DNA of 64,000 nt. It comes from Amphiscolops sp. MND2022 (lineage: Eukaryota). Below, in pieces: positions 14,601 to 47,526 of the stretch (its first letter is position 1; every line of letters starts with the position of its first letter). A program made the translations under genes and the position numbers. The notes under the pieces were generated by a model. It was not told where the DNA came from, made no database searches, and saw only the letters and a list, made by a program, of their open reading frames with translations. The stretch spans positions 44,394,001 to 44,458,000 of the forward strand of contig OZ076409.1 of assembly GCA_964187785.1 (NCBI GenBank), read 5' to 3'.

Positions 14601-15100
14601 CTGGGATCAACTTTTAAACTGTGGCATCAGCGAAGTCATGTCTCAATGTATGGCGGTGTTAGCAGCGCGAGAGGCATCGGTAGTTGTTCCTGCTGTGGAC
14701 GACTATCGGTCGGAATTAGCGGAGCAGTTAAACATGTTGGAGTTTGCTGTGCGCAGTCCTGTGCGTGGTGGGAGTCGCCGAGGAGTCGGCCCGAGGTCTC
14801 TTCGAGTAGGGACGGCTAGCAGTGGTAATCGTGCGCGTACCCAATCGGCAGTTGCCTTAGCTGAAAGCGTCCCGGACAGGGGTGTGGCTTATACAAGCGG
14901 GACACCGATTCGGGGTCGTGGTGCCTCATTGAGGAGTGCGAGCAAAGGTTCGACAGGACGTGGGCCACAGACGGCGCAAGCACGAAGGACTGGAGGGAAA
15001 CTTCGTGGATGCAAAACGCTTGTGCTTGCCAATCCATGTGATGATGAACGCGATTCTATTGTCACGAGCGAGAGTACCTTTCGAGGGTCTCGGCGGAACA
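11636..15100 (+). pseudogene. Decayed copy of the antisense multi-exon cargo gene in element B
   Basis: Exons homologous to the A cargo, with matching donors (GT at 11802, 12156, 12652, 13393). Shared peptides include RRLDAFLSSQLG, GTVGALAVEDF, FARCLLCRVDL...WEHWKGLEHTRLEQ, WDDLALYFG and CPRMCGSGRD. Frameshifts and a ~0.77 kb deletion near 14600. Confidence 0.85.
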
Positions 15101-15213
15101 AAAAACGGGCTGCTAGACTCTTCGTGGTCTATCTTCATCATGCCATCCGGCATGACACTCTCTGATGACTCGAATTACATGAACATGTTTCGCACCATGT
15201 TTCTTAACGCCGT

Positions 15214-25717: not shown

Positions 25718-26067
25718 CCGAACCCCCCCCCACGAAAGAACATTTTGTTCTTGAATATAAATATTTCATAAGACATATGAGAATAATATGAATATTATCA
25801 AAGAATAAAGAATACTATATATTACTAGAATACTATATAATCATACTATATAATACAATATAATAATACTATATAATGTTACTAGAGAATACTATATAAT
25901 AATATAGTTTGGACATTTCAGGCAAAAAATTACCATAATTTTTTGATATTATTGTCCAAAATAGCAGAAATTCAAGTTTGGAACAAGCTAAAATCGTATA
26001 AAAAGTGCCATATTTCAACGCAAATTTTGTCCGCTATAAACTCTAATGGGCAACTTTTAACTGACAG

Positions 26068-27150
26068 TGTCGGAACCACTGTCAGTACTTGTAGTTGCTG
26101 GATTCAGCCTGTTCCCTTCCCCATTAACGGAGGCAAACTGATTGGTCAGTGTAAGGACGATATTGGTAAGGTCACCGATTTGTCTATTTATCTCATTAAA
26201 TCGTTGGTCAATGTTATAACTGTTACCATTTTGACGTCTAGTTAAAACGTTGTCGGAGTCAAGGTCTACCATTTGGTCTCTGGATAAAAGTTCAGGGAAA
26301 CTGGCTTCACTTTCGTTATCGCTTGATCTATCCATATTTTCAGTATCTACTTGTCTATTTTGACTACTTTGAGATCTGGTAATTACCATGAAAGGTCTGG
26401 AAGTTTTAGGTTGAATTGAAATGTTTTAATGTTAAAATAAGGATTGATAACTCGTAAGCAAGGTAGTAGGCAACTGGTTATATCAATGGTTACAACTCGT
26501 GAAAGAGTTCGGTTTTACCCGATTGTGTAACTATAAAGGTGTGTTAGCACCTTTCCTTTTAGTCAATGACATTCGATTTACTAATTGCTGTTTAATTGCA
26601 CTTGACGACTGGTGGCTACAGTCGTGACGGGTGATAATCGGCGTTTAATTATTCATGTTTGATCCAGTATGACCGCAAGCACCAGTCATTTTAGCACGCA
26701 ATTGTCTCAATTGCCTCTTAAACTGAGGCTTTACTACGGCGTGTTCTTATCATCATGGTGACTGATTCAATTATCGTTTGGAGGATAATTACTAAAAGGC
26801 ATTGTACAAATTGCTAATATGAATGAACGAAATGTAGTTGTTATGAATGATTGAATATTCTGGTAATACTTTACATGTAATATAAAAAATGGATGATGAA
26901 TGATTAAATCACAAACTATCACGATAGCTGATGACTGATTGTTTCAGTCTTGGTTTCTAAACGATGCACAATAATATGAATGAATTTAGTATTGATGACT
27001 GTTAGTTCCAGTCGTTATACTCTCAACTGTATTGTTCGGGGAATAAATTACTGCAATGTATTTTCATGATGATCTGTATTTTAGGGAGTTTGATGTATAA
27101 ATTAATGTTTTAGAGTTCGTTTAATTCCTTCATGCTTGGCGGGCATGACA
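26068..27150 (-). repeat. 3' LTR of element A
   Basis: Direct repeat of 39895-40977 with roughly a dozen substitutions by eye. Includes a copy of the Gag N-terminal ORF (26057-26389). Confidence 0.97.
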
Positions 27151-27165
27151 TTCCCCCCCCTTTTT
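27151..27165 (-). promoter_or_regulatory. Polypurine tract of element A
   Basis: Minus strand AAAAAGGGGGGGGAA directly abutting the 3' LTR. Confidence 0.92.
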
Positions 27166-27968
27166 GAGAGAGAGCAGGCTGTAGGGGTAATGGGTAAGGT
27201 GAACGGTCGAGTTGAGAGGTAGCAGATATCTGAGTGGAGTATTGAACAGCGGCTGAAGTGGCATGCAAGGTATAGAGAAACGCGTGGGTGGCAATGTAGC
27301 TTCTGGAAACATTCGGAAGCGTGAATGGACAAGGTGAGGCAGGCAAATAGTAGGTAGTCGGAAGTTGAAGTCTATTTATAGAAACGGTTTGACAGCCACG
27401 TCATCCGTGTAGTGCGCATTGAGTGTGATGTTTGTTTAAGCAACTTTTCATCGATCATCGGCAGTTGATTGATTTGTTGTGTTGCCATAGTGAAAGTCAG
27501 TCGAGTCAATTACTGTTTGAATTGAAATTTGATCCCGCTTTAATTTGAGAGTATTCACCTCCGTTTGTCAACCTTTTGCTCATTCTTCCACAATGATGAA
27601 AATATGTCCATGTTTTGTTTTTTTGCACTGTTAGTCCTGTGTTTTTCGGGTATCGCTTGTACTGATAAGATTGTTCGGGGAGTTAGTCTTTTTTGGCTGG
27701 GAAATACGACTGCTTTCTTTCTGCTTCTTGTAATTAGCATTTGATGTCTGGTGGAAGTAGGTCCAAAAATATGGTTCCTTGAATGTCCAGTATTACTAGA
27801 GTAAAACTCTTTGATGAGGAGATCAGGTATCCATTGTATATTGGAATAGGTGATCAGTCTATAACAACAATAAATGGAAGAATGAGCTTTTGCAGTCGTG
27901 TCTTCGTCGCCGATTATTATTTCCCCGGAGAGTTTCAGTTATTTCCTTTTCTCCCAGCGTTATCCAAT

Positions 27969-30900
27969 ATGCCTGATGATGAGGCAGGTCAGTCCTTTGG
28001 TCCCGGATTAGCTGAGTTAGTCGCTGAAGTGGAGAATCAGATGGCCGGAGAGGGGGCTCAGCTAGGTGGAAGTGCAGGCGATCTGGAGTTATCAGGATTA
28101 TTGCTGGAGACTAGTTACTGCTGTCAGTTTGCGGCTCGGGTATCTTCTGCTAATATCGCTGGTTTAAGCGATTTATTGGATGTCGTTCTCTCCCAGGAAT
28201 TTGGTAAGTGCTCACTTCGTATATTGTACTACTATCAGTGGTATGTCTAAAGCGTAAGGGAGAGTTAAGTCTTTCCTTCAAGTTTGTATACTTTCAAGTT
28301 TGAGTCCCGTAATGTTAGGGAGTGTCAGGCGTAGCATTTTAAATAGAGTGTTCTCGTGTTTGTAGCTGATGTCAACATGTCCGACGTGGTCAGTTATTTA
28401 CGTCGCTTTCGTGCTACGATAGCCACTGGAACTGCTGAGGGTTCTGAGACGGAGGCGGCGCCCATCCTTCGTCGACTGGATGCCTTTCTGACATCGCAAC
28501 TTGGTAGGTGAATTCACGGTTACTGTGAAGTTAAGTTATCTGCTGGGGGGGTCTTTTGGTTCTTTTGTTGTTCAATACCAATGCATGCAGTATACGGTTG
28601 CTGTTCTCTAACCAGGCGGTGATAGATGCCTTCAGTCGTTGAGTCCAAAGTAGGTGCTATGAACTAAGGGTTACTTTGCAGATGCCAACGTTCGAGCTGA
28701 TGTCATTGTGGGGCAGTTCACTGAATTGTTTCAACGTGTAGAACGGGAATTTCAGCAGTGGGTGAAGGCTGCAATCGAGTCTAGTTTGGGTCGGCTAGGG
28801 ACAGTGGGTGCTCTCGCTGTCGAGGAATTCCTGGACAAAATGAAGGAAGCGTTGCGAGAACTGGGTCAAACTCCTGTCGTTCCCCGTGGTGGTGAGACTT
28901 CTTCTCTACCACGCTCTGTAGCTGGGAGCATCTCTGGTGTGGACGATCGTCGTACGGCAGTGGAATCTGATGTGCCGTCTGAGTTTGGAGAAAAAAGCGT
29001 CGTTCCTTCTGGGGGGACTTCGTCCGCTGTTGTCTCCACATCAAAGCCTGGTAAGAACTCTCAAAAGATCATGTGAGGGGTTTTAGTTTCAAGTGGTAAA
29101 AAAATAAGGGATGTATATAACGTACTACTACTGCTTAAGGACAAACACGTTTTTTTTTCGAAAGGTTTTGGCTGGACAGTGGTGCTATGTGATTTATGTT
29201 GTGTGTTAGCAGGACGGAAGCGTGCTATCAAAACGTTGAAACCATCATTTTTCGTTTCTGGGGTCGTGGGGACCTTCGGTGGTTTCCCCCGAAACAAACG
29301 TGTGGTGGACGGATTCGCAAGGTGTCGTCTGTGCCGCGTTGATTTAAGTATTGCCGGACGCGGGCTACATAACTTGTGGGATTATTGGAAGGGGCGAGAG
29401 CACACTCGTCTTGAGCAGCGCTTCCGCATCATGTCTAATAGGCCTCTATTGGACAAGTCCTGTAGGCCCGTGTCATTGGACGAGGATCGGAGAATTCGGA
29501 CAGCCAGAGTGTCAGAGCCACCTGTCATTCTGGAGTCAGAGGTGAAGCTGACTGTAGAAGAGCGGATTGCGGTCGAATTAGAAGAGGAGGCAGCTGGTTC
29601 GAAACCCGAGTTGTCGGAGTCCAGTGCTTCATACCTCTGGCTATGCTGCTTCATCAATAACTTTGTTGAACTGAGGGACTTTTCAAGCGTTGTGCGGTCC
29701 ATGGAAGTGTGGTCCAGTAGCATGCGGGGCGAGCTGGTTTTCAGTGAGAGGGTGCTATCATACCCGAAATGTCAGGTAATACATGTTTTGTTCGTCTCTT
29801 TTTTTTGTGTTGTGTTCGTGAAAGTTGGTTCTTGTCTGCTAGTTCGTGTTTGCAGTTGCTGACTGTTTTCATTGGCAGTACTTGCTGAGAAGTGTCACCG
29901 TTGTATATTTGTTGTAGAGTCTTGTGTTATACGGCCTGTATCCATTTGTCATGGAGAAGCTGAGCGATCCACTTTCTGCTGGGGCGCGGTTTGGTCTGCA
30001 CGTCCGTACTGATGGGTCGTTGAAGCGAGTGGATTGCCACATTTTTGACGCTCTGACAGTCAAGATGGTTGTGTTAGCTGCTATTCCTGGTGGTGGTGAG
30101 TGGAAACGCTCACTACTCAAGATCATTGTCTCTGTTCTGGCCTGTGTGGAGTCTCATGCGGGTCTGTGCGCTGTGAGTGTGGGAGAGAATCTGCGTCTCG
30201 GGCGTGCGTTAGCTAGCATCGCGCACCCAACCATGACTTTGGTTACTCGTCGTCTCGATGTGGACTGGCTGAAGGATTTGCTGCGGCGCACGTTTCTACG
30301 AGAGTTGAGTGGACTGGAGCCTTTCTGCGTGTTGGAGTATTTCCGGTTCCGCTTAGCCGCCGTCATCGGTGGTTCGTCGTTTGACAATATGCCAAGGCTT
30401 CGAGAGGTAATTGATTTTAAGTTTGTTAGCGCGTTTGTTGTTCTCTTTTCGGGGACTGGTGTGAGTATGTGTGGTAATGTGTGGTCGTGGTCTGCTTTGT
30501 TCTAACTCGGTGCTAAGTGGTGCTGCGCGCTTCCAGGAGTTGTCGGCACTGTGCACCGAACTTGTGGAGCGATGGGACGACCTCGGTGCCTACTTCGGTG
30601 TTCACCGGTCAAATACTGTGTCCGAATCGCGGAGTATAGCCAGTATGGAAACTCAAGTCTTCAACGATGCTTTGTCGAGGCCGCGATTTGCAGTTTTGAA
30701 ATTTCTGGCAGAGACAGGTCAGTATAAGAGTTTTGAGTGTTACTTGTGTACGGGTGTGTCGGTACTATTTTTGTTGTAATTGTTGATTTGGGTGTTATCG
30801 ACGACTGAGTTGTTAGGGTGTGTAGTTTCTCGACATTTTGTTTGTGATTCGCCTGTGTGTTTCAGTTGTTGCAAAGTGTCCTCGCTTGTGTTCTGCTGGG

Positions 30901-32145
30901 CGAGATCGGAACTTGTGGTTTGAGCGGGAGCTGGCTGCTTTCCTTCGAGAGTTATTGTGTCTGGTCGTCGAACACTCATCGTTACCACCTGATTTTGAAG
31001 TCCTCGCCGTGTTGAAGTTGCGACTGGGCGAGAGTAAGCCTGTTGACAAGGCCCGATTTGAAGTGCTGTTCGGCCAGTACTTCCGCTTCGACGTGGTCAG
31101 CCAGAAGCCTTTCTTTTATAAAGAAGTGCAAAATTTCCTCAGGACTGTGTGCGAGTCGTGCATTGGCGATTATGACCAAGGGTGGGTTAAGCAGCTCAGC
31201 TTGTTGTCGCTGGATCCTTATGCTATACAGTCGGTGTCAATGGATCGGCTGACAGACATCCTTGTGGGTACACTTTCTGTCCTCAGCTTTGGGGATCTAT
31301 GCAGAGGAGATCAAGGTGCCATCATCTTGCAGCAGTATCGCGAGGTAGTCAACTACTTCAAGCATCGATGGGAGTCCAATGCTTCGGTGGTGCCAGTTAT
31401 TGACGATGCCATGTCTTTGTGGCTGTCATATCCTTCGTGAGACCGGTGCCAAGAATTCCGGGGCATTGTGGAGATTCTTTTTGTGGGAATGCTCCATGAT
31501 TCGTATGCTGCTGATTTTCAGGATGTAGGAGACACAGCCCTCGATGACGGTATCATGCTGTCAAGTTTGAACATTATTCGAAGCTGGATGTCGAGTGGTT
31601 TCGGCGGGCATTCTCGACTCTCGATGACTGGATTTGTTAGACACTGCAGCACTACAGACATGCAGGTTTCGCGGTTAACCGATGAAGGCAGAGCTATCCC
31701 CTGGGACCAATTGGTTAAGAGGGGGGTTGATGAATCGCTTGGGCGCTGTGTCACAGTACTGGAGACGACTGGTGGACTACCTACTCGCACTGTCATTGAC
31801 CATTATGTGTCTGCTGTTTGTAATCAGTTGCGGACAATGGAGTCGAGTCCAACTGCTCCCCGTCGGAGTCCTGTCAAATCAAGGCGTTCAGCAGCTCAAG
31901 CGCCGAAATTGCAATCCGAGGTCGTAGTGTCGTCAGCAGGTCCGAGTGAGTCAGCTCCGAAGCGCAAAGCAGTCAGTAGGACGTCAGGGGGCAATCACGG
32001 ACAGAGGACCGGTGGGAAGCCGGACAAGAAAGGGAAGCGCACTCTGGCTACCTTTGAGACTGAAATTGTACAAGCCAGCAGGCGGGCTTTTTCACTCGAA
32101 GAAAGCAGTAACGAGGGCGGCTCCAGCCGTTCTACAGAGTATTAG
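27969..32145 (+). CDS. Antisense cargo gene of element A: ~1084-codon zinc-finger, hAT-transposase-like protein. Predicted exons 27969-28203, 28366-28503, 28682-29050, 29213-29775, 29918-30406, 30537-30717, 30866-32145. One in-frame TGA at 31438-31440.
   Basis: All six GT-AG junctions are phase-compatible and join open frames (3255 nt total). Homologous exons and intron positions in element B. CxxC finger FARCRLCRVDLSIAGRGLHNLWDYWKGREH. The start codon and the exon 4 and exon 6 acceptors are less certain. Confidence 0.8.
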
Positions 32146-33890
32146 TTGGCAGAAGGACTTGTATTAGTAATCAGACTTTCCATATTTCTTTGTGTATTCA
32201 GCTTTTTGTGTATTTATTGAGTTCTGATATTGTGATTTGCTTTATATGCTGTAATTTTTTTTTGTTTTGGCCTTAGTAGGTCTTGCACTTTCTAGTGATT
32301 TAAATAGATGGTTGCAACCGTCATAGTACTCTTCTTTGTTTTTCCTTAGGACTGGACAGTTCGGACGTCACAAGAGGTTTTTCACTTGTTTTGCTTGTAT
32401 GTACGTTTATGCATGATGCTGGACTGGCTTTGTCTTTCTTAAGTGTGTGTATGGGGTAACCCATACTTCGCTATGGTTTCGAGTGGACTTACGCTCTAAT
32501 TGTTACGGCGTGTTCAGGGAATTTATTGAGGAAGTTCATGTTGGTTATGGTTGTCACTGTGGTAACCATTAGCATAAACATTTTTTTTACGCGTCAAACT
32601 GTGCTGTGCATGGTACTCGAGAGCCAGGTTTTCATGTAAGTTGTTAGTGAAGGCTCGAGAATGGTAACGAGACATTCAGACCAATGGCCTTCCAGTCCTT
32701 AGCGCCGCACTGTAAGGTACGTGACTGAGCAGCTTGTTCATTACGATGACGGAAGGCTCAAGGAGTGTATCCTTGGTTTGATGCATGACTTATTTTGTGT
32801 GTATGTAATATTCATGTTATAATTTTTAGGGACTTTTTTACATGTATTTTAGTGTGTTTCAATATATTACATGTAGCGGTCTGTGTACGCGACGTCATCA
32901 TCGTTGATGTGTGTCCTGGGACGTCATCATACGTGATGTGTGTCGTCAAGATCGCGAGTTCTTACATTATGTTAACTTCGGTGGTAGGAAGTTGTTAGAC
33001 TGAGAACTATGGGTGTGTGTAGATTTTAATACTAAGCAGAGGTTGGGGCCGCGCACTCCTGAATTTTTTCCCAAGCGAGGCGAAGCCTTCGCATATCTGG
33101 TTACTTTTAAGGGGTCGGGTATTCATTGTTTTCTGAATTTGGCAAGCTCTTGTTCTTTACCGGCGTTGTGTTATCGTCTATGGTTGGTTTGTTATTTTTG
33201 GTGTTCAGTTCATTGGAAAAGGTGAATTCCCGTCGGAACCACCTATGCAAAACTAACACTGAATCCAGTTGCTAAAGAGCAACCTTCATCTGTATGGTGA
33301 CGACCAACCACACAAGCGCGCTTTTCGACGACGCACCCACACAGCCAGCACTATGGGTTTACGTCGAAATGGGTGGAGTATTGGTTGTGTTGTCTTAACG
33401 TTTTCCAGGCAGCAGGTCGTCACTGTTAGTTTGTTGCGCTTGTAGAGAACGTTGTTTTCGTTCACGTTTCGTTAGTTGTGTTTCGACGGTTTTCTAAGCG
33501 AAGTGTTTCGTTTCGTTTGTTGACGTGGTAGTTTTGGTGCGAATTGACTAAATTATCGTTCACATTTTTGCGTGCTACGTGTGCTTCTGGGCCGCAAGTG
33601 TTGGGATGATTGGCGTTTGCAGTCGTTGCGTTACCGTTTGTTTGCTTCTTACGTAGTAGTTGACGCTAAGTAATTAGACAGCTCAAACAGTGACGACGGA
33701 AGTGGATGGTCATTTAATCGTATTAATTGGATTGTGTGCTAGGTTGTCCGTAATTTTCAATATTGCTTGTTGAGTACTGGTAAACAGGGTCGTAATTGTA
33801 AAACAATTACTTTTACGGTCAAGGAGCGAGACTGTTTATGACTGCTGTTAGCAGTCGTTGGTTTGAGAAATGCAATGAGGGATGGGTGTT

Positions 33891-36800
33891 TTACAGGTTT
33901 CTGTTTTTCAGAAGTAACTGTTGCAGTGAAGGCGTACCATGTAATTCGTGCATTAAGAAATCAGGGTACGTGGTAGGTTTTGGGTTGTGTCTGAGCCCGT
34001 ATCGAGACATGGTGTGTCGTGATGGCGCTGGAGGGCGATCATTTGTTTGGTGTTCAGAATTGTTCATGCTAGCATTATCCGGTTGTGGTTCTTGTGTTTC
34101 AGCCTGGCTTTCAGGTATGGAGATGTTTTGATCAGGTTCTATGTTTTGCCGTTCGTAGTAGATCATTCCATGGTCTGCGTGTAACTCTTCGAAGTTTGAT
34201 TGTTCAGGTATTACTTGTTGTGGCTGTTCATGGACATGATCAGGTAGGTTATTGTCAAATAACTCCTGCTCGTTGAGGGCGTCAGGATCTTCGAAATATC
34301 GTGATGCATTGTCTTGAATGTCTTCGATTGGTGCGTTTGGCGTGAATGGGCGAAGCCTCCTTCTGTGAACGCATTGGGTGCGAAGAGTGCCAATCTTACG
34401 TATGATGTAATTTGAATTTGACAAGACTTTGACCACTTTGTATGGGCCTTCCCACTTGAATTCCTTGAATGGAATTTTTTCAGATTGCTGAGACAGTCTT
34501 TTGTTTAGCAGAAAGGTGAAATCATTTACTTTCAGAGGTGAAGCTTGCGCTTTTCGGTCGTAGTAATTCTTGTATTTGTGAAAGGCTTCGATTATGTTGT
34601 CATGTGTTTGTTGGAATTTTTTGTTCATGTTATATAGTATTCCAGTGACGTCAGTGGTGTTACGTTGTTCGGTTAATGGATGGCTAAATTTGACGTCAAG
34701 GGCATTGAACGGAACACGTCCGTGGAAAACTTCAGTGGGTGTGCATCGGATAGCCTGGTGGTAGGTCGTGTTATGGGCCATTACGGCCATGTTGACGTAT
34801 TTGTGCCATTGCGGTGAATCAGCTGAGATGTTGATTTTGAGAATTTGTTTCAGTTTTTGATGGGAACGTTCAACCATCCCAATCGTTTGTGCGTGTTTTA
34901 CAGAGGCATGTTCGATTTTTATACCGGCAGACTCCATCAGGGAGTTGAGCAGTTGAGATGTGAATGTCGTTCCCTTATCAGTTAAGATTGTCTTGGGTAC
35001 ATACGAGTGTTGCGTAAAGATTTGCATGAGTGCTTCCACGACCGACTTTGTGTCTGGTTTACGGATTGGTATTGCGAAGAGGTACCTAGAAAAGTAGTCG
35101 CATGCAGTGAGAATGTGTGTGAATCCGTTGGAAGGTGGGAGTTCACCGACTAAATCAATTTCTAGTATGTCTTCTGGTCCGTTGCAGGGGTCGTATATTT
35201 GTTGAAGTGGTGGTGTGATTTCAGCTTTTCGGATTGGTTTTGAGCGGATGCAGTCCTGGCAGTTCGAGACGTATTGCAGTACCAGTTCAGAGAAGTTTGG
35301 TGAGTAGTACCTTTTACGCAGTTCATGGAGCATTTTGTTACAACCAGGGTGACCTTGCAGAGGGTCATTGTGCAGGGATTGAATGATTTTCCGAATGGTT
35401 TCAGGGGGAGTGACAACTTGTTTACACTTGATTTTACCTGTACCATCAAAAAAATTCCTGTACAAAACGTTGTTCACTACTTCAAGTCTTTTCTTGTTTT
35501 TAACTAGTTTTTGGAAAAACTGACTTTCAAAGTTCACATGATTAGGAAGGGTTTCCTTTTGGTTCAAAATTCTAATCATGCGTTGGATGTCAAGGTTTAC
35601 GACTTGATCCTGGATGATTTGAAACTCCCCATTGGGGCATACCTGGTTTACCACGTTGTCATGAAGCTTTCGTCTGAATCTGGTGAACGTCATCTCGTCA
35701 TGTTGCCCTGTGATGATGGGTGTGATTTGATGACGGATGGTTTCTATCCTCTCGAGAAACTGTCCACTCGATTCGCTGCTGCACATGGGGACCTGGTTCA
35801 GGATGGCTTTGATGGCTTCATTTTGTTTGGTGGTGGTAGTGTGTTGGTCATCAGGTATGTATTCTTCTTCTTCGTCGTCCTGCTTGGGTGTTCTCGATGC
35901 CAGGTCGATCTCGACGTGGAAGACTGGTATCTCGTCGTTGAGTTTGAGGTGTATTCTTTCCTCTGGTCGTATGTCAAGACGAGACAGGTAGTCTGCAGCA
36001 GGGTTCTCAGTTCCAGGAACGTGGGCAAGTACGAATTCGAATTGGAGCGTCTGATCGCAGTAATTCCATAGCTTCGGGGAATCCGTTTAGACTGAAAAAA
36101 TCGGGTCAGTGCTTTATTGTCCGTCATTACTATTGTTGGTTTCTTGACACCCCAGAGTATGTGTGCGAATTCATCGAATGCGAAATGCATCGCCAGGAAT
36201 TCCTTTGCGTACATTGTTAGGGACATTTGGCCCTCCGTGAATCGTTGGGATCCAAATGATACTGGGGCGTACGTTTTCAGTGGTCCATCGTTTGTTTCGG
36301 TATAGTCTTCTATCAGGAGGACATATCCTGCCGCATGCTCGCTGGCGTCGCACATTATAACAAGCTGTTTATCGGGTAACGGCAGACGCAGCGAAAGTTT
36401 CGCAGCTTTGGCAAGATTTTCATTAATCTCGAAGATGATGTCCTTGTGCTGCTGGGTCAACTGGAATTTGACGTCTTTTTGAAGTAGTTTGTACAGTGGG
36501 GTGAGTTTTTCTGCTAGGCGTGGTATGTACTGCCTGTAGAACTGGACAAACCCGATGTACCTTTGGAGGGATTTGATTGATGTGGGCAATTTTATCTTCT
36601 TGAGGAAGTCGTCGATCTTGTCTTCGAGTGGGGCGACACCCTTTGATGTGATGCTTCTCCCGAGGAAGTCGATCTGTGGGTGGCCAAACGCACATTTTGA
36701 CATCGACAATTTCAGTCCTGCTTTTTGGATTTGTTGGAACACAGCTTCAATGTTTGACAGTAGCTCATCTACAGTGTGGGCAGCAATCCCAATGTCGTCG

Positions 36801-38695
36801 ACATATTGGGCACATTTATCCGCTTTCACCAGTGCATCAACGTATTCTCGCACCGTGCTGTTGAATGCTGATAGGGATCGGTTGAGTCCTTGTGCCAGTC
36901 GTAGATAAGCAAAGGTTCGACTTCCAAAATTAAATGCCAAGAGTTGTATGGATTGTTCATCCGCCATCTGCAAACAGTGGTACGCCTGCGAGCAGTCCAG
37001 CTTGCAGAAGTACTTCTTCCCTGCCATGTGCTGGGCGGCGTCGGCGATGGTGGTGACTAGATGATTATGTTGGTTGTAATCATTTTTCAAGAGGTGGTTG
37101 ATTCTGCGCAGGTCTACATGAATGCGAAGTTTCCCATTGGGTTTGCGCTGGGCAAATATTGGTGAGGAATACTTGCTGTACGGCAACGTCGTGATGATCC
37201 CGTACTCTTGCATCAGCGCTAGTTCGACGAGCAGGTCATATTTGAGGTTGGTGGGTGTAGGTAAGCTCTGCGCGTAGACTGGTTCATCATGCTTCGGAGT
37301 GAGTTTGATTTTGAAGTCAGTATTGATGCCTATGTCGAGGCGGTGTCTGGCGAATACATTGTTGTACTTCACAAGGAGGTTCTCAATTTGTTGTTGTTCG
37401 TGTTCATTCGGGATTGAGTTCTCCCATTTGAAGTTAGCAAGGAACTCCTTGCGTTGTTGGTCGTCTGCTGTTGGGTCCAGTTTCTCTTCTTCACGGAGTT
37501 GAGTGATTTCGTCATATATCCGCCTTTCAATGCGGTTCAGCTTGGACGGGTCGTCACATGTCTCCGGGGTTGGGTACCATCTGCGGTTGGTTTCAGTGCC
37601 GGGTTCCTGGAACAGTTGGTTCAGTACGTTGTTGGCTTCGTCCGGGTATTTGGTTATTAGTGTCAATTGTTCGTTTGACATTAGTTGTAGGTTTTTTGCT
37701 TGATTGGGAGTCATTATTTTGAAGGTGGCCACTGTCGTGTTCGGGTTGAGGGTAATTGCATGGCAAGTGAGGTTGGTGATCTGGACATGGCTTTTCTTCT
37801 CAGTGATTTGCGTTAGGGCGGGGGACACCAGTAATTGTGTCTTCCTTTCAAAGGCAGGAAAGGTTTCCACTGTGCCCTGGATTGTCCCGAGTTCCCTTTC
37901 TGCTAGGACGGGGACAATGATTTGGTGGTCCGGTTGTATGACTGTTTTCTGTGTCGTTCGTAATTCGATCATCTGGATTTTGTATCGTCCTCGTTCTGGT
38001 TTCAGTTGCAGGGTAATATCCGGGAACTTGACTACGTTGTTGGCAAGGTCAAGTGTCACTGAGTACTTTTTGAAAAATGACATTCCGATCAAGATGTTAC
38101 CCATGGTTGGAAGAATCATGAAGGTTTCCTCGAATACTTTACCTCCGATGAAGAAGCGAAGTAGTACCTGTTTCCGGACCGGGACGATGCTTCCGTTTGC
38201 GATTTGGACTTTGAAGTCCGGTGCTGGGTACTCTTCGAGAAGTGCGGCTGGGTGTGCAGACAGGATTCGTCTGAGTTCGTCTTCTGACATTGCACTTCTT
38301 ATTGCTCCTGTGTCGAGGAGTCCGTGGTTCTCGTATTCTCGGAATTGCAATGGGACGTACAACATCTTGTCCTTTTTGTTTAATTGGAGTGTTGCTGTTA
38401 ACACCTGGATCGCCACGTCTTTCTTTCGGTTCATTGTTTTCCTTGTACAGTCAGTCGTTGTAGTCGAGTTAGAGTGCTGTTTGTCTTCTGTCGTTTGTAA
38501 GTTCACGTCCGTTGGTTCGGAGGGAGGGTTCACTTTGTCATTGGTTGTTTCGTGGGTAGTTGTAGTCTTAGGTTTCTGATCCTGCCGAAGATCAGTTGCC
38601 CGGTTTTTGTAGTTCTTTGTGTAGTAGTAGTTGTTCATGTTGCGCACTTTGTTATTGTAATAGTCAGTCGGATGACGTGGCTTCAGAAGTTTTTT
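33891..38695 (-). CDS. pol: Pol polyprotein (protease, RT, RNase H, integrase), split by a 1-bp deletion near 36076
   Basis: LLDTGA, YVDD, MCDAS, HHCC (HNDPLQGH...CQDC), DDE (EIDLVG/TDKG/ERSH) and WEGPY motifs. Restoring one C in CCCC gives KRIPPKLWNYCD...ADYLSR in frame with ORF 33891-35786. Confidence 0.95.
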
Positions 38696-40216
38696 GGCTG
38701 GCTGGATGATCCTTCGGTGAATTCCTGTTGGTAGTAGTCATCACTGGTTTGCTGTTGTTGGTCCCCTGGTGCAAGTTCGTTCATTTCATTTGCTGGGTAA
38801 GGAGTTGTGTGCTCTTCGGAAGTCGCGTCGGAAGTCCCTGTTTTCATTTGTGGTTTGCCTATTGTATGGCACGCTTCCGTAGGCGGAGGTTTGGGGTATT
38901 CTGTAACGGCAGTCTTTTGCGGAGTGACCTGTATATCCGCAAATTTGGCAGACCAGTTTGGCATTGTATTTTGGTTGTGTTTCTGCGTTGTTATTTTGCT
39001 GTTCGGGCTTTTTCTGAGGTTGTGAGTTGTTGTTGCCTGCTGCTTCGTCACGCAGTCGTTTTCGGCACTCAGCCCATTTGTGTCCGTAAATTGCGCAGTA
39101 TCTGCAGTTGCCATCGAATTTCTTTTTGATTGTTGGTCGTTCGTTTTCGTTCCTCTTCTGAACAACTGGCTTCTCTGGGACTTCTTGTGTCTGGATAGCT
39201 TGGTTGAACGGTTGGAGGAGTTGTTGGTTTGGTAGTAACTGGGCATATTGACATCTTCTCTGGACGAATGTTTTGATGTCTTCAATGCTGGCATTGTGTT
39301 TTCCTGCAATTGCCAGTTCGTTTTGGAGCTGGATCGGTAATTTGGCAAATAGGAAGGTCTGGACAATTTCCTGTGCCTTTTCGCCGTAGGCTTGTTTGGC
39401 AATCTTTTTGTAATTGGCGAGGAAGGTACTGAATGACTCAGTGGCCGGATCGTATCGTAGCTGGTCGAATTTGAACTTCGAGACTTCTGAGAGTTCTTCC
39501 TTTGCGTATTCTTTTTTGAATGCCGTCAGTATATCTCTCAGTGTCGTTTCTGTCATGATTGTTAGGGTTTGCCAAAACTCAATTGCGTCATCTCTGAGAA
39601 GACTCTGAAAGTAGTTGAGTTTTTGTTCTTCGGTTAGTTTGTGGGCATGTGGTCGTAAGTGGTTGAGCAATAAACGCTCGAATTCATTGTATTTGTCTCG
39701 ATTTCCCTTGAATAGAGGTATTTGGGTCTGCAGGATTTGTGGATGGGTCAAGGTTTCCCCCATTGTACTGCGGAGATGGTGGATTTCCGTCATCCCATCT
39801 GCTATCTGCGGAATACTTTCGTCACTCCTTGGTGTCCCGTTGGGTGGTGTTGTTCGAGATCCTGATGGTCGTGGGTTCGAGACTCCTGTCACCATGTCGG
39901 AACGACTGTCAGTACTTGTAGTTGCTGGATTCAGCCTGTTCCCTTCCCCATTAACGGAGGCAAACTGATTGGTCAGTGTAAGGACGATATTGGTAAGGTC
40001 ACCGATTTGTCTATTTATCTCATTAAATCGTTGGTCAATGTTATAACTGTTACCATTTTGACGTCTAGTTAAAACGTCGTCGGAGTCAAGGTCTACCATT
40101 TGGTCTCTGGATAAAAGTTCAGGGAAACTGGCTTCACTTTCGTTATCGCTTGATCTATCCATATTTTCAGTTTCTACTTGTCTATTTTGACTACTTTGAG
40201 ATCTGGTAATTACCAT
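38683..40216 (-). CDS. gag: Gag, starting inside the 5' LTR. Probable 1-bp insertion near 38800 truncates the annotated ORF at 38786.
   Basis: Retrotransposon gag core (IPLFKG...LRDDAIEFW) and two CCHC knuckles, CRYCAIYGHKWAEC and CQICGYTGHSAKDC. Removing one base joins it to ...YPANEMNEL...QPKNF*, which ends at the slippery site. Confidence 0.92.
38689..38695 (-). promoter_or_regulatory. -1 ribosomal frameshift slippery heptamer A AAA AAC (gag/pol)
   Basis: CAG CCA AAA AAC TTC TGA ends gag. The -1 frame reads KLLKPRHPTDYYNNKVRNM straight into the pol ORF. Confidence 0.8.
39871..39894 (-). promoter_or_regulatory. Primer binding site (tRNA-Leu-like)
   Basis: Minus strand TGGTGACAGGAGT directly after the LTR, followed by TCGAACCCAC complementary to a tRNA T-arm. 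Confidence 0.8.
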
Positions 40217-40977
40217 GAAAAGTCTGGAAGTTTTAAGTTGAATTGAAATGTTTTAATGTTAAAATAAGGATTGATAACTCGTAAGCAAGGTAGTAGGCAA
40301 CTGGTTATATCAATGGTTACAACTCGAGAGTGAGTTCGGTTTTACCCGATTGTGTAACTATAAAGGTGTGTTAGCACCTTTCCTTTTAGCCAATGACATT
40401 CGATTTACTAATTGCTGTTTAATTGCACTTGACGACTAGTGGCTACAGTCGTGACGGGTGATAATCGGCGTTTAATTATTCATGTTTGATCCAGTATGAC
40501 CGCAAGCACCAGTCATTTTAGCACGCAATTGTCTCAATTGCCTCTTAAACTGAGGCTTTACTACCGCGTGTTCTTATCATCATGGTGACTGATTCAATTA
40601 TCGTTTGGAGGATAATTACTAAAAGGCATTGTACAAATTGCTAATATGAATGAACGAAATGTAGTTGTTATGAATGATTGAATATTCTGGTAATACTTTA
40701 CATGTAATATAAAAAATGGATGAAGAATGATTAAATCACAAACTATCACGATAGCTGATGACTGATTGTTTCAGTCTTGGTTTCTAAACGATGCACAATA
40801 ATATGAATGAATTTAGTATTGATGACTGTTAGTTCCAGTCGTTATACTCTCAACTGTATTGTTCGGGGAATAAATTACTGCAATGTATTTTCATGATGAT
40901 CTGTATTTTAGGGAGTTTGATGTATAAATTAATGTTTTAGAGTTCGTTTAATTCCTTCATGCTTGGCGGGCATGACA
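39895..40977 (-). repeat. 5' LTR of element A
   Basis: Direct repeat of 26068-27150, followed on the minus strand by the PBS. Confidence 0.97.
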
Positions 40978-41370: not shown

Positions 41371-41683
41371 GGATCTCTTTCACTATGTCCCCCCCCCCCT
41401 ATATCACTCGTTACACTATGTCCCCCCTAGAGAGAAAGAATGTTTGTGGCCTATTTATATTCATCTCCTATTGGCTAATCTCAAATGCTCTGTCAATCAA
41501 TTGATCTCGTCATAACTAACGACCCTTTTTATTGGTTCTTATTATGAATCCCCACTCAGCCAATCAGAAGCGTTGTTAGATAAGAGCAGATCTGCGCTAT
41601 TAGAATGTGCAATACATGTATTTAATAGCGTTTCACTATGTCCCCCCTTTTTGCTGTAGGGGGGGATATAGTGAAAGAGATCC
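41371..41683. mobile_element. MITE with 8 bp TSD (Merlin-like); second, left-truncated copy at ~46089-46385
   Basis: TIRs GGATCTCTTTCACTATGTCCCCCCC / GGGGGGGATATAGTGAAAGAGATCC and TSD AAATATTT. The empty site is visible at ~41124-41172. Confidence 0.8.
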
Positions 41684-42824
41684 AAATATTTTTATTCAAG
41701 AACACAATGTGCTTTCGTGTTGGGGGATATTCCAACAAGGTGTACCTGGAGGGGGGAGGGGCGGGTGTAGGTAAGAGATGACATGGTCCCAATTATTTTA
41801 ATGAATTGAATTTTCATCGCAAACGATGTCGACATAATGCACCATGGAGTTCGAACCTTTCTTATCAAGAAATATTGAACGAATTCACACTGGTTTGAGT
41901 GGAAACTCGTATAAGGCTTGATGAAACACGATCGATCGCTTTTTGCAGCATTCACAGACGCACTAGAATGTACGTATCTTTTAGTCTTTCTGCAGAGGTC
42001 GTTCACTTTGATTGATTCTCCGACTGTTTGACATCAAAATATTATTGTTTGGCTGTGTGTGTCACTTGAATTACAGCACGCGTTGAACAAATGGAGTTCG
42101 ACTGGTTGTGATGTTTAAACACATGAACAGACCGAGATTTTTGACTCATATCGCGTGAACAAACTATTATCGTTAATTTAACTTCTAATATTGATGTCAG
42201 TAACGAACTTCATTAGTATACGAGTTCCAGTGGGTATAATAACGCCCCATACTTGACTTTGACATTAAATTGAAGCATAAAACTTGGCATTTTGATATAA
42301 ATGGTCTGATTTCCATTACATGTATACAAGGCTATATCCATCTTATTCCAGTTTCCACCCCTCGGTGTTATTGAAATCGTGATAATCGGCTGCATCGGTA
42401 CTCTTTTGACTTTCGGTAGTCGGTCATCAAAGCAGAATCTTGAGTAACCAACTAGATCTGCTATTCAACCTAATGTTTCGACTTCTCGTTTCGTTTCCAA
42501 TTGAACATTCAATCGGCGAATTAGCGAGCCAATGAAATTATCGAACGCTGTGACGTCACCATGTCTTTGATTCTGCTCCGATAACTTTAGACACGAGCAA
42601 AACATTCTCTTACCATTTATCAAACCAATTTTATATCGCTTCACTTGCCGCTCGCTGCACAGAACTAAAATTAAACTGACTGGTACGATTATATGACGTG
42701 TAAATCTAGTTCACGCACAAAATTTCACGACCTCTGCTAAAAATTTTTATGACCTCCAATAAACTGCGGCAACATTACATACCTTTTAATTTATAGAAAC
42801 ACATCTTTGAATTGAATTTAAAAT

Positions 42825-43946
42825 ATGATCAGAACACACAAACATTTTTTATCCAACAGACCCAAGACATCAATCCTGCAGCGAAAACCTGAAATCAAGA
42901 AAAGCGTATCGTTCGCTGACAGTTTCGGGTTCAGTTTACAAGATGTTAAAATGTTTGACCGTCTAGAAGACTTTTCCCACATTTTGTTTGACCTGGCCAA
43001 TCTAGATTGCTGGAAGTACAATATCCTTGATTGCAACATCCGTGATGACCCCAAAACCAGAACTCAATTCTCTAATGTGAGTTCTAGAGATGTTGACACC
43101 CTCACAGAACTGCTAAATGCGAAAACTTACAGTTGCACACCTCTCATCTCTCCCAAATTCTCCCAAATTTCTCCTACCAGCAAAGTCAATAATTACACAC
43201 AAACCCTTCAAAGAAATACTTCAGCTAAAGGTGTGCAAAAATCCATTATTGAATTGACAAAAATATTATTTCAAGGCAAAAAACGTTCGTAAAAGAAAAC
43301 ATTTTATTGTATCTTTACTGTTTGCAAACTCTTGCGAAAAATCAAACAAACTCTTGCAATTTTTGGCAATCGAATGATTCATGAAAACTTTTTTTGACAA
43401 TCTCCAATTTTCCCAGATCTGAAAAATCATGCATTATATTCAGTGTTTACAATTTTCTATTGCACTATTCCGATTTTTCTACACATTAGTTTCCTTTCAG
43501 AAGTGAAGAAAGAAACTCCACAACCCTTGGAAGTTTATTATATTCCTTCTTTTAAAGTTTCCTCCACATGCGAGCCAGAAATCTGTCAGTACTTGGAAGT
43601 AAAATTGGAGAGTCTTCGCCACACGTCCACTTTCAGTCTCACCGGAACTGTGGTTGTCAGGAATATCTGTTTTTCCAAAAGCGTCCAAATTCGCATTACT
43701 GGCAATTCATGGAAAACTTTCGATTGCATCACTGCCACTTATAAAAATGCCAAATGCCAGCATCTGGATAGATTTTGCTTCGACGTGGACTTATTGAACT
43801 TCTCAGGAGAACAGCGAGAACCCTCAACCCTCAAATTACCGGTCACACTAGAGCTGTGTGTCAACTACATAGCCGGAGAAAACAATTTGACTTTTTGGGA
43901 TAATAATTGCGGATCAAACTATAAACTGTACAAAGTTGCCATCTAA
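42825..43946 (+). CDS. PPP1R3: Protein phosphatase 1 glycogen-targeting regulatory subunit (CBM21), copy 1; join(42825..43230,43501..43946), 283 aa
   Basis: KKSVSFAD PP1-docking motif. CBM21 motifs GTVVVRNICFSKSVQIR...W, DRFCF and FWDNNCGSNY. Phase-1 GT-AG intron. Confidence 0.9.
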
Positions 43947-44293
43947 TTTTTAACTTCCATTTTGCTGGTGATATCAATTACTTGATCATTTGTGTTCATC
44001 TAGTACCTTGTCAATTTTTATTGCTCTTCGTGTATTTGTTTGATATGACCCTTGCAAACTCTTAACTATTCATCTTAGGATGACGGAACTTTCTGAGTAA
44101 ATTTCTATTACTTGTTTTTGTGCTGATCTGAAATTCTACCAAAAATGACTTTTAAAAGACGTAGCTTTCTTTACTTAGAAAAAGCCCATGGAAAAGAAAA
44201 AGCACACGAAAACTAACATCGGCGAGTTTTCAGTGGAAATTCATTTGGAAAAAAAACATTGATATCCTAGGTTGAAATCCTACAATTAAATTC

Positions 44294-45162
44294 AACAAGT
44301 CATGAACGACCCAAGTCGGCGCTCGGCTCAAGGTTCAAAAAAGAGGCAAGTTTTTTTATATATGCAAAAGAACACAATTATGAAAATTTTATCAAATTTA
44401 CAACGGCAAAAATACTCGAAGTGATACCCACAAAACTCCTTTTTCCCCAACTCGAAACATCCAAAAACCCAAAGTTTCCATTTTTTTTTCGGAAGTGTGT
44501 GTCGAAAAAGGAGCTTTCAACTCGCACAACTACTTTTTTCCAAGCAGAAATCAGTTACGAAAGAAAGGGGTACCCTTTAACCAAATGAAAGTTTTTTTCG
44601 GAAAAAAGTCGCAGAGTTGAAAAACCGTTGAGAAAACTCTAGTTCCACAGGATCAAAAACTACCAAACAGGCCACCTTCAAGACTCTGGGAAACTATTTT
44701 CTATTTTCCTTTACAGAAATTCTCAAAAATGTGAAACTTTTCGAAGTTTTTTCAATTTTATTAATACTTCGGTAAACTGCACAGTGCCGAAAAGCCAGAA
44801 GTGGCCATCTATATTAGCAAAACGCTTTGTTTCTGCTGAAAATCAAGGGAGGGGGTTCAGGTTTGACAAAAACAAACGTCGCATAGTGCCGAAAAATCTC
44901 AAATGAGGCCCTTTGGTCTCCCCTCTACTTTTGCAAGCATTAAAAAGTCATTCAGTTCAGTTCGAGACTCGAACCCACGAACTTCTGCTTCCCAGACATT
45001 AAAAAATCCGCGTAAACTTTAGGCCAAGCGGCACTTAGTTGTAAATACGTTACAGCTCAGTGGTGGTAGCTCATATTGCATATAGAAATATGTCAGTTCG
45101 CTGGCCTTTAAAAAAGCCACTGCTATAGTCAGGTCTTCTCTTCGAGAAGCGCCGACTAAAAA
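44294..45162 (-). mobile_element. DINE/HINE-like element (duplicate at ~48996-49865)
   Basis: subTIRs AGTCGGCGC (44314) and GCGCCGACT (45149). B-box-like GGTTCGAGTCT on the minus strand at ~44966-44976. Confidence 0.65.
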
Positions 45163-45237
45163 GACGCTGTACAACAAAGTACAGAAGTACGCTAAGTACA
45201 GTAGTTTTTAAAAATTTTAATCTGTAATTGCTTTAAC

Positions 45238-46057
45238 TTTTTGTCGGTGCTTTTCAGAAAAGAGCGACTATAGTCATGGCTTTTCGTCAGTTTTTTTCGA
45301 TATCCCTGAACTGTCCAATAGTTCTACCAAAAGATCTCCAATTTTACAAAGTCAGTCAGTCAGTTGGCCTAGTAGTCAGCGCGGATTTCCCGCGGTCTAA
45401 GAAGCAGGGCGCACTGGACCAAGAAACTTGTTTGCAAAAGTAGGGGGAAAACCAAAGGATCTCCCCTTCAGAATTTTTTCCTGCACTATGCGACTTTCCT
45501 TCGGACCTCTTTCGCTTTTCAGCAGCAACAACGTTTTGCGGGCGTAGATGGAGACTTTCAGTTTTTTCGGCACCATACAATTTACAGCGTTAAAACAATT
45601 GGAAAATGATTTTCCTGAAATATTTTTCCACAATTTCTGTTTTCTCCAAAAGAAATATGTTTCCCGACTCTTGAGGTGTTTCCTGACCTCTGTTACTTTT
45701 TGATGAGTTTTTTAACGATTGTGGAAAATAACCAGCTTTTTCGTCTCAGCGTGTTTCCGGAACTTTCATTTGTCGAAGGGTACCCCTCGCTTTCATAGCT
45801 GACTTCGGCTTGAAAAACAAGTTTTTTGAGCTGAAACCTTTTTCGGCAGTATGAGACTTTTCTGAAAAAACGCCCAAAAATTTCAAATGTTTTTTTTTGT
45901 ATGTTTCTAGTTAGGGCAAATGTGGTTTCGGAGACTTATGCAAATCCCTTGGGGTATTTTCTGGCACTGAGAAACTGCAAAAAGCTGAAAGTTGTGTCTT
46001 TTGCATATAGAAAAAAGTTTGAGCGGGGCGCCGAATACGACCGGTCCTGGCTTGTTT
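45238..46057 (+). mobile_element. DINE/HINE-like element, head-to-head with the previous one (duplicate at ~49941-50760)
   Basis: 5' TTGTCGGTGC...GCGACTA and 3' GGCGCCGAAT...CCGGTCCTGGCTTGTT. Confidence 0.65.
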
Positions 46058-47526
46058 CCGTATTCAAATCGATCAATTTTCCTTAACTCCCCCCCCCCCC
46101 CTATATCACTCGTTACACTATGTCCCCCCTAGAGAGAAAGAATGTTTGTGGCCTATTTATATTCATCTCCTATTGGCTAATCTCAAATGCTCTGTCAATC
46201 AATTGATCTCGTCATAACTAACGACCCTTTTTATTGGTTCTTATTATGAATCCCCACTCAGCCAATCAGAAGCGTTGTTAGATAAGAGCAGATCTGCGCT
46301 ATTAGAATGTGCAATACATGTATTTAATAGCGTTTCACTATGTCCCCCCTTTTTGCTGTAGGGGGGGATATAGTGAAAGAGATCCAAATATTTTTATTCA
46401 AGAACACAATGTGCTTTCGTGTTGGGGGATATTCCAACAAGGTGTACCTGGAGGGGGGAGGGGCGGGTGTAGGTAAGAGATGACATGGTCCCAATTATTT
46501 TAATGAATTGAATTTTCATCGCAAACGATGTCGACATAATGCACCATGGAGTTCGAACCTTTCTTATCAAGAAATATTGAACGAATTCACACTGGTTTGA
46601 GTGGAAACTCGTATAAGGCTTGATGAAACACGATCGATCGCTTTTTGCAGCATTCACAGACGCACTAGAATGTACGTATCTTTTAGTCTTTCTGCAGAGG
46701 TCGTTCACTTTGATTGATTCTCCGACTGTTTGACATCAAAATATTATTGTTTGGCTGTGTGTGTCACTTGAATTACAGCACGCGTTGAACAAATGGAGTT
46801 CGACTGGTTGTGATGTTTAAACACATGAACAGACCGAGATTTTTGACTCATATCGCGTGAACAAACTATTATCGTTAATTTAACTTCTAATATTGATGTC
46901 AGTAACGAACTTCATTAGTATACGAGTTCCAGTGGGTATAATAACGCCCCATACTTGACTTTGACATTAAATTGAAGCATAAAACTTGGCATTTTGATAT
47001 AAATGGTCTGATTTCCATTACATGTATACAAGGCTATATCCATCTTATTCCAGTTTCCACCCCTCGGTGTTATTGAAATCGTGATAATCGGCTGCATCGG
47101 TACTCTTTTGACTTTCGGTAGTCGGTCATCAAAGCAGAATCTTGAGTAACCAACTAGATCTGCTATTCAACCTAATGTTTCGACTTCTCGTTTCGTTTCC
47201 AATTGAACATTCAATCGGCGAATTAGCGAGCCAATGAAATTATCGAACGCTGTGACGTCACCATGTCTTTGATTCTGCTCCGATAACTTTAGACACGAGC
47301 AAAACATTCTCTTACCATTTATCAAACCAATTTTATATCGCTTCACTTGCCGCTCGCTGCACAGAACTAAAATTAAACTGACTGGTACGATTATATGACG
47401 TGTAAATCTAGTTCACGCACAAAATTTCACGACCTCTGCTAAAAATTTTTATGACCTCCAATAAACTGCGGCAACATTACATACCTTTTAATTTATAGAA
47501 ACACATCTTTGAATTGAATTTAAAAT

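Follow-up and report, generated by a model that had tools for sequence, protein, structure and literature searches.

Candidate gag-pol frameshift signal assembled from two RNA ends 9-12 kb apart in Ty3/gypsy retrotransposons

The heptamer A AAA AAC is described as one of the shiftiest sites for -1 ribosomal frameshifting (PMC5009743), and the stimulator of such a site usually follows after a spacer of 5-9 nt, a role that base-paired oligonucleotides are also able to fill (PMC7618472). Retroviral and Ty3/gypsy gag-pol signals, PEG10 among them, combine the same heptamer with pol in the -1 frame and a helix 5-9 nt downstream; the stimulator described for them is local, either a hairpin or an H-type pseudoknot (PMC5009743, PMC7618472). 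Long-distance signals are described in plant RNA viruses: BYDV, red clover necrotic mosaic virus and pea enation mosaic virus 2 likewise employ a -1 heptamer shift for the polymerase (PMC5893793, PMC5009743, PMC7618472), and, as predicted for the element analyzed here, the shift region pairs with 3'-proximal sequence, so that translation depends on the condition of the distant 3' end. In these viruses, the shift site is followed after 6 nt by a local stem-loop, the internal loop of which pairs with an apical loop ~4 kb away. This BYDV interaction is the closest known case; our literature search, which covered few subscription journals, found no long-distance frameshift signal in a retroelement.

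The window, that is, the whole 64,000-nt stretch of DNA analyzed, contains a Ty3/gypsy LTR retrotransposon at 26068-40977 on the minus strand. The element has two LTRs with TG...CA ends, flanked externally by a 5-bp target-site duplication, both a primer-binding site and a polypurine tract, and, after gag, the domain order protease, RT, RNase H, integrase. Its parts, the strands of the predicted pairing and the corresponding blocks of element B, a related copy, are the following.

10982-11005, minus strand: distal blocks of element B, which lacks pol and the junction in the window
26068-27150, minus strand: 3' LTR, 1083 nt, 98.9% identical to the 5' LTR
27151-27175, minus strand: polypurine tract adjoining the 3' LTR, read from the sequence
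27394-27407, minus strand: distal strand of predicted helix 1, 11,262 nt downstream on the element RNA and 244 nt before the 3' LTR
27411-27418, minus strand: distal strand of predicted helix 2, complementary to the proximal strand
27783-32145, plus strand: antisense cargo frames located between pol and the distal block, with homologous frames in element B
33891-38737, minus strand: pol (protease, RT, RNase H, integrase), with one frameshift between RNase H and integrase in the window copy
38641-38648, minus strand: proximal strand of predicted helix 2, 8 nt, preceded by a 20-nt A/C-rich loop
38669-38682, minus strand: proximal strand of predicted helix 1, 14 nt, complementary to the distal block
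38683-38688, minus strand: 6-nt spacer holding the gag-frame stop codon, read from the sequence
38689-38695, minus strand: slippery heptamer A AAA AAC at the gag/pol overlap, with pol in the -1 frame
38683-40252, minus strand: gag, the second half of which carries a frameshift in the window copy
39883-39894, minus strand: primer-binding site, complementary to the 3' end of this genome's tRNA-Leu(CAG), the gene of which was found in 2 of 6 loci scanned
39895-40977, minus strand: 5' LTR, within which the start of gag falls

With gag and pol each broken by a frameshift, the window copy is not a working example; in 12 of the 30 closest copies, the gag frame runs uninterrupted to the slippery site over at least 513 codons. 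The heptamer is of the X XXY YYZ form in the gag frame, with pol open in the -1 frame, and A AAA AAC is present at all 37 junctions analyzed, 14 of which had been picked by that pattern. The gag stop codon immediately follows the heptamer in 33 of these junctions and lies one codon further on in the other 4.

The first-pass annotation had reported two blocks behind the heptamer with exact complements near the polypurine tract, and our analysis bears this out: the 14-bp and 8-bp blocks are nested in the order required for pairing, after a 6-nt spacer. In the whole window, AGCCACGTCATCCG is found only at +10982, at +27394 and on the minus strand from 38682, and AGTGCGCA at +27411, at -38648 and once more at +647. 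At -39.8 kcal/mol, this duplex is the most favorable one across everything downstream within the element; the runner-up reaches -33.2 kcal/mol. The chance expectation for a complement of this given 14-mer is 1e-5. Inverted repeats of 14 nt or longer somewhere in the 12.7-kb interior are, however, not rare, being reached by 11 of 60 block shuffles, so that the case rests on position and conservation rather than on length. The same annotation held that element B keeps the blocks, which is true of the distal side (GTGCGCA at +10999); the only coding match of this copy in the window is the gag N-terminus (9451-9777), and its relatives elsewhere in the genome carry both the junction and the distal blocks. 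The proximal strand of helix 2 is retained across clade 1, the clade of the window element, and the preceding loop varies in length.

Genome-wide, the clade 1 junction pattern yielded 384 matches (control, 0) and the distal pattern 507 (control, 23). An opposite-strand partner was found downstream of 55 of the 71 junctions listed for two chromosomes, at a median distance of 11.5 kb. The pol of clade 2 is ~45-50% identical to that of clade 1. Clade 2 junctions number 2722 (control, 0) and their partners, which are spelled differently, 2138 (control, 1), with 62 of 100 listed junctions paired at a median distance of 10.0 kb. Pairing orientation across the clades was found in 0 of 24 and 0 of 100 listed junctions. 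Overall, 7 of 9 deeply diverged lineages have their own, differently spelled partner 9-12 kb away. In elements with mapped LTRs, for which 7-10 kb were scanned, the partner lies within the element in 16 of 18 cases and 128-440 nt before the 3' LTR in 14; thus, the junction pairs, by prediction, with sequence kilobases downstream, near the 3' end. The element counts overstate the number of independent events because the lineages, nine in all, are related; these come from a quick, unfinished tree search that left out 11 rows without a long open frame, and one further element, L171, was dropped because no junction passed the filter. Two elements counted as misses, L123 and L169, have only 689 and 493 nt of the 3' region in common with their sister copies.

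In 21 of the 23 elements with a partner, the best partner site came from the lineage of the block itself. The energies of cognate pairs are biased given that partner sites had been chosen as best hits; in a ranking of 37 elements with an approximate nearest-neighbour scorer, the cognate region fell outside the top 5 in 12, and the family site was not the top match in 4 of 15 clade 2 copies. An exact-match scan missed the clade 2 partner owing to a bulge, and duplex scanning recovered it. The partner of L167 surfaced only with a longer query, and the top distal match of L130 was rejected, falling outside the element; best-energy hits alone can therefore mislead.

The position of the pairing relative to the heptamer is sharply constrained. 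In an offset control on 27 elements with 18-nt windows, those starting at +3, +5 and +7 beat shuffles by 4.4, 5.3 and 4.3 kcal/mol, respectively (at +5, by more than 3 kcal/mol in 22 of the 27), and the margin at offset 0 was 2.5 kcal/mol; the remaining 12 offsets were within -1.0 to +0.6 kcal/mol of shuffles. The signal is thus restricted to windows starting 0-7 nt past the heptamer, and the first predicted pair follows a spacer of 5-7 nt in all 23 elements with a distal partner, within the 5-9 nt typical of frameshift signals. Furthermore, a comparison of family members, the check suggested along with the initial proposal, showed that, in 7 of 9 lineages, the partners match their own junctions and carry compensatory changes. 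At helix position 7, U-A gives way to A-U between clades 1 and 2; C-G is replaced by U-A in L080/L081, A-U by G-C between L159 and L161, and A-U by U-A between L175 and L181, and the position of the bulge shifts among subfamilies. In clade 1, 11 of 100 listed junctions carry a C-to-U change that still permits a U-G pair, and all 8 of their partners within the listed range are unchanged. The GCC at the start of the block hardly varies, beyond what pairing alone requires, and the residues encoded at the block vary.

A sufficient local hairpin, the outcome named in advance as contradicting the proposal, was not detected behind the slippery site. The fold of the window copy past the heptamer is not significant (z = 0.1), and z falls below -2 in only 2 of the 37 junctions, both with hairpins starting well past the block; a local hairpin was accordingly rejected as the stimulator. 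Weak hairpins are predicted at the distal site of clade 1, and none is significant (z of -1.8 or weaker in 32 of 32 sites scored). A prediction of the distal partner, fixed for four named families before their sequences were fetched, held in two and failed in two (L116/L119 and L130/L133). In the two failing lineages, a partner found post hoc lies at +214 or +276 nt instead, in 6 of 6 copies each, and was reached by at most 1 of 100 shuffles; a mid-range partner of this kind was found in 2 of 33 other elements. The constant feature is therefore a helix behind the slippery site, wherever the second strand lies.

The long-range form is known from one genome. The 21 metagenomic loci with relatives are all shorter than 6 kb, too short for distal comparison, and no relatives were found in viral contigs or prokaryote genomes, one self-complementary chance match in viral contigs (L069) having been discarded for lack of pol similarity. 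Relatives from another record, with G GGA AAC, have the mid-range form (reached by 0 of 100 shuffles in L108 and 5 of 100 in L100); in L091 and L103, no significant partner was found. The G GGA AAC junction pattern gave 4 matches in the present genome and 3 in the control.

Given the lineage-specific partners, the compensatory changes, the 0-7 nt register and the lack of a local hairpin, the pairing between the junction and the far partner is very likely real, and it probably stimulates -1 frameshifting at A AAA AAC. The element RNA would produce Gag-Pol through a programmed shift at this heptamer, with the roadblock 5-9 nt downstream formed by a remote helix rather than by a local hairpin or pseudoknot. 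This helix, of ~11-20 bp and often in two segments with a bulge, would take its second strand from the 3' untranslated region, 9-12 kb away and just upstream of the 3' LTR; it would form in the cell, stall the ribosome on the heptamer and re-form after each shifted ribosome melts it. If the pairing occurs in cis, RNAs without the 3' end would make Gag but little Pol. The claim that only full-length RNA makes Pol, which presupposes cis pairing, fails as a universal rule because two lineages use a partner 0.2-0.3 kb away. We assign a probability of roughly 0.65 to the complete reading: throughout a radiation of Ty3/gypsy and env-bearing retroelements, the stimulator would be assembled from two RNA ends 9-12 kb apart, with no local structure; Pol would come only from RNA with an intact 3' end; the gag stop may also be shielded from decay by this helix; and, in evolution, the second strand would have moved between 0.2-0.3-kb and 10-kb positions.

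That shielding could be a second role beside frameshift stimulation; that it is the main one, with the poly(A)-proximal end folded onto the gag stop against nonsense-mediated decay and the shift driven by the heptamer alone or otherwise, appears improbable. In most translation events, the gag stop is followed by 10-12 kb, the helix begins directly behind it, within a few bases, which fits a shield equally well, and in 14 of the 18 mapped elements 0.13-0.44 kb separates the partner from the 3' LTR; a poly(A) tail folded near a stop codon is reported to suppress decay in human cells (PMC2689704). However, two lineages as well as L100/L108 have a partner only 0.2-0.35 kb away, which would leave the 3' region unshortened, the first pair stays 5-7 nt from the heptamer with the stop at either codon 0 or codon 1, and our search turned up no stimulator other than the long-range helix. 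We consider it about equally improbable that the pairing primarily serves cyclization, dimer formation or packaging, possibly between two RNAs, its position at the slippery site only making translation and packaging mutually exclusive. The partner does adjoin the polypurine tract and the 3' LTR, Ty1 cyclizes through 5'-3' long-range pairing of CYC5 with CYC3 (PMC7969010), and sequence data do not distinguish cis from trans; but the proximal strand is locked to the heptamer, not to the LTR, and lineages with a partner 0.2-0.3 kb away could not circularize in this manner.

The first-pass annotation also raised an alternative or additional role as a bZIP (CRE/UPRE-like) site upstream of the cargo gene. 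In the corresponding DNA-level explanation, the shared word would drive the antisense cargo gene, and its match at the junction would be incidental. Although CCACGTCA is invariant at the clade 1 distal site, upstream of the cargo, it is found at the partner site only in this clade: in the six other lineages that have a distal partner, the word is missing there and the spelling follows their own junctions, and most of the six have a sense env-like gene in place of the cargo. Nor would a DNA site call for a mirrored counterpart at a constant spacing from the heptamer. This explanation is highly unlikely and, as a general one, untenable. Coincidence, or a side effect of protein conservation and of the G-poor composition of the strand, is the least probable of all and is refuted, notwithstanding the shuffled inverted repeats and the non-cognate regions that sometimes score as high as cognate ones, by near-zero pattern controls, clade-specific co-occurrence, the sharp offset peak, changes on both sides with varying encoded residues, and the position of the partner in non-coding sequence beside the 3' LTR.

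If frameshift stimulation by the remote helix is confirmed, the reach of long-range frameshift signals, ~4 kb in the cases that we found described, would more than double, and the principle would extend beyond plant RNA viruses to LTR retroelements. These elements would also offer a naturally occurring stimulator that owes its first helix entirely to a remote strand. Such a signal would escape standard reporters and prediction tools confined to 100-200 nt around the slippery site. Other retroelement junctions at which the flanking sequence does not suffice, such as that described for Tca2 (PMC2194720), could be re-examined in the same way, and the nine lineages are ready-made natural variants.

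Similar by description are the Tor elements of Oikopleura and other env-bearing invertebrate Ty3/gypsy elements, with gag, pol and, often, an env-like gene encoding a furin site and a membrane anchor (PMC4402516). Such a gene is present in most sister lineages, whereas antisense cargo replaces it in the window's clade. Ty1, likewise an LTR retrotransposon, pairs the 5' and 3' parts of its RNA over a long range, the 3' partner being close to the polypurine tract (PMC7969010); however, CYC5 is located at the primer-binding region, whereas here the 5' strand is 1.2 kb from the primer-binding site and fixed to the heptamer. Ty1 is also described as shifting frame without the need for an RNA structure. 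Compared with the plant viruses, where the interaction is proven by experiment, the retroelement pairing is predicted from sequence. The signal would work like a BYDV-type element, but we do not classify it as a member because there is no significant local fold in the place of the bulged stem-loop at the shift site: in this LTR retroelement, the distant strand, 9-12 kb away, would itself build the first helix.

The element studied here resides in a eukaryotic genome of 1.07 Gb:

26068-40977, minus strand: Ty3/gypsy LTR retrotransposon

Its LTRs (1083 nt each) are 98.9% identical to each other, with a 5-bp target-site duplication, and the primer-binding site matches tRNA-Leu(CAG). The order is gag, protease-RT-RNase H-integrase and ~6.7 kb with antisense reading frames (cargo). 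One frameshift breaks gag and another breaks pol in this copy; among the 30 closest copies, gag closes shortly past A AAA AAC and pol goes on in the -1 frame, and 12 of the 30 keep 513 or more gag codons open. The gag start is within the LTR (window 39895-40252 and 26057-26425), so that each 3' LTR carries a ~120-codon gag N-terminus. A near-perfect 4.7-kb tandem duplication lies beside the 5' LTR (window 41389-50791). In the genome at large, tRNA-Leu-like 3' ends (981 matches, 967 on one strand) include a long tandem array with 180-530 nt spacing (G000:C8:35587000-35635000).

The first-pass annotation proposed that two blocks behind the heptamer pair with the far 3' end of the element RNA, and all its coordinates for heptamer, blocks and complements proved correct. 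A 6-nt spacer separates the heptamer from the 14-nt block. On the RNA, the complement of that block comes 11,262 nt further downstream and 244 nt ahead of the 3' LTR; with the 8-nt block included, the duplex is stronger than any other in the downstream part of the element (-39.8 vs -33.2 kcal/mol). A 14-nt inverted repeat anywhere in 12.7 kb is not unusual (reached in 11 of 60 shuffles), but the complement of this given block at its place is expected by chance at 1e-5. The sequence behind the heptamer folds no better than its own shuffles (z 0.1). The distal blocks reported for the related element B (window 9400-15160) are present, but the junction is absent from that copy, which appears to be a deletion derivative, with ~46 nt of the LTR start (15115-15160) fused to cargo and 3' LTR. 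Both sites persist in diverged relatives of element B, in which the loop separating the proximal blocks varies in length and sequence.

Genome-wide, the clade of the window element (clade 1) yielded 384 junction matches (control 0) and 507 distal matches (control 23). For 55 of the 71 clade-1 junctions that were listed, from two chromosomes, a distal match follows downstream on the opposite strand, at a median of 11.5 kb; one junction has a match in any other arrangement. In 11 of 100 listed junctions a C is replaced by U, which turns the pair into U-G, and the partner is unchanged in all 8 cases inside the listed range. In most clade-1 subfamilies (L031-L059; window 27370-27440), the distal GUGGC can be folded onto a GCCAC that follows 4-8 nt later; such a hairpin, a potential competitor, is not significant against shuffles. 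From conservation alone, the clade-1 block could be a protein-binding word rather than one strand of a helix, and lineages with a differently spelled block were therefore sought.

Clade 2, with pol ~45-50% identical to that of clade 1, has GCCACGACUCC behind the heptamer (2722 junction matches in the genome). A duplex scan placed its partner ~10 kb downstream, with one bulged base; partner matches number 2138 (control 1), 62 of the 100 junctions listed have one, and the family site is the best match in 11 of the 15 copies scanned. Cross-clade partners in pairing orientation were found for 0 of 24 clade-1 and 0 of 100 clade-2 listed junctions. The covariation that the annotation had named as a check is observed: lineages spell the partner differently and pairs change on both sides, as at helix position 7 (U-A to A-U between the clades) and in L080/L081 (C-G to U-A), and the place and base of the bulge differ among subfamilies. 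In clade 2 (L060-L065), a small local hairpin also occupies the stretch ~30-60 nt past the heptamer, in the place of the second long-range helix of clade 1, with arms co-varying at synonymous sites (GUCCGA/UCGGAC vs GUCAGA/UCUGAC).

A distant protease used as query gave 150 places and new junction spellings. The prediction for four named families was fixed before their 3' regions were fetched, and 16 further elements were fetched unseen; the prediction held in two families and failed in two. For 16 of the 24 elements, the best match in 9.9 kb is a partner 9.1-12.0 kb away, placed within the element by mapped LTRs or by a site common to a mapped sister; a seventeenth partner emerged only with a longer query, two elements are truncated or rearranged, and one gave no junction. 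The remaining four, two copies each of two named families, have no distal partner, and one of their matches was a false positive outside the element. Where LTRs were mapped (18 elements), the partner lies 128-440 nt ahead of the 3' LTR in 14 and 1.3-1.4 kb ahead in two more.

In the two partnerless lineages, the block behind the heptamer would instead pair within pol, with a partner at +214 or +276 that 6 of 6 copies of each lineage show and at most 1 of 100 shuffles does as well; among the other elements, 2 of 33 have such a partner. These partners were found post hoc, after the distal prediction had failed. Relatives from a metagenome record carry G GGA AAC as the heptamer and a block of another sequence, with a partner at +331 in L108 and a weaker one at +346 in L100; no mid-range partner was found in L103 and L091. 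Because distal and mid-range lineages both pair, the common feature, as read from sequence, is a helix from 5-7 nt behind the heptamer with a remote second strand. In the lineage of L175 and L183, the distal partner is joined by a possible local partner at +192, within the codons for the protease active site (1 of 100 shuffles).

Controls bear on the specificity of the pairing. Of 37 blocks, 25 placed their cognate 3' region among the five best of the 37 regions, against 5 expected, two of these hits being for a wrong site; at the site level, the lineage of the block itself supplied the best partner in 21 of 23 cases. When 16 window offsets were compared in 27 elements, shuffles were beaten only at starts 0-7 nt behind the heptamer, and the first base pair follows a 5-7 nt spacer in 23 of 23. 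Nine lineages of this genome stand apart on long branches in a quick tree, and seven of them have the distal partner. That a local hairpin might suffice, the annotation's own counter-case, finds little room: folds with z < -2 occur in just 2 of 37 junctions, both further downstream.

We infer, with a probability of roughly three in four, that the long-range helix is the frameshift stimulator. A AAA AAC ranks with the most slippery heptamers (PMC5009743); stimulators usually lie 5-9 nt past the heptamer, a role that a base-paired oligonucleotide can also take (PMC7618472). The majority of ribosomes would terminate at the gag codon just before the helix; some would shift back by one base, unwind it and translate pol, after which the distal strand, in untranslated sequence, could re-pair. 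RNAs lacking the 3' end would yield little Pol, provided that the two strands pair in cis. Alternatively, a helix that follows the gag stop directly, and whose far strand is close to the poly(A) end, might shield the RNA from nonsense-mediated decay, which fold-back constructs of such arrangement suppress (PMC2689704); the mid-range lineages weaken this explanation, as they do a role in Ty1-like cyclisation (PMC7969010). A bZIP site, the annotation's other suggestion, is improbable as a general explanation, the word being confined to clade 1.

The region behind pol differs among lineages:

L147:311-2620, L151:3557-5935, L166:1732-4002, L182:1356-3770 and sister loci: sense third frame
Window 27783-32145 and 11594-14349, plus strand: antisense cargo, clade 1
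L081:1384-3315, minus strand: antisense cargo, clade 2

Most sister lineages have the sense frame, of 750-800 aa, with a furin site followed by a hydrophobic stretch and a C-terminal membrane segment; it has no sequence match in Pfam or PDB, and scores 0.95 in Atlas against class I fusion proteins. This env-like frame is closely followed by the distal block, so a separate env RNA could supply the block in trans. In clades 1 and 2, antisense cargo, unrelated between the two, takes the place of env, with weak zinc-finger leads only (BED-like, Atlas < 0.9; C2H2-like, below cut-off). An antisense frame in a mid-range lineage (L149:1096-1995, minus strand) has a weak JmjC match below the Pfam cut-off.

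The feature is real, and a literature search of partial coverage found no long-distance frameshift signal in a retroelement. The closest systems are the signals of BYDV, RCNMV and PEMV2 (PMC5893793, PMC9426525, PMC5009743, PMC7618472), which span up to ~4 kb and reinforce a local stem-loop. The window element probably works in the same manner but without the local stem-loop, and for that reason we do not class it with these viral signals.
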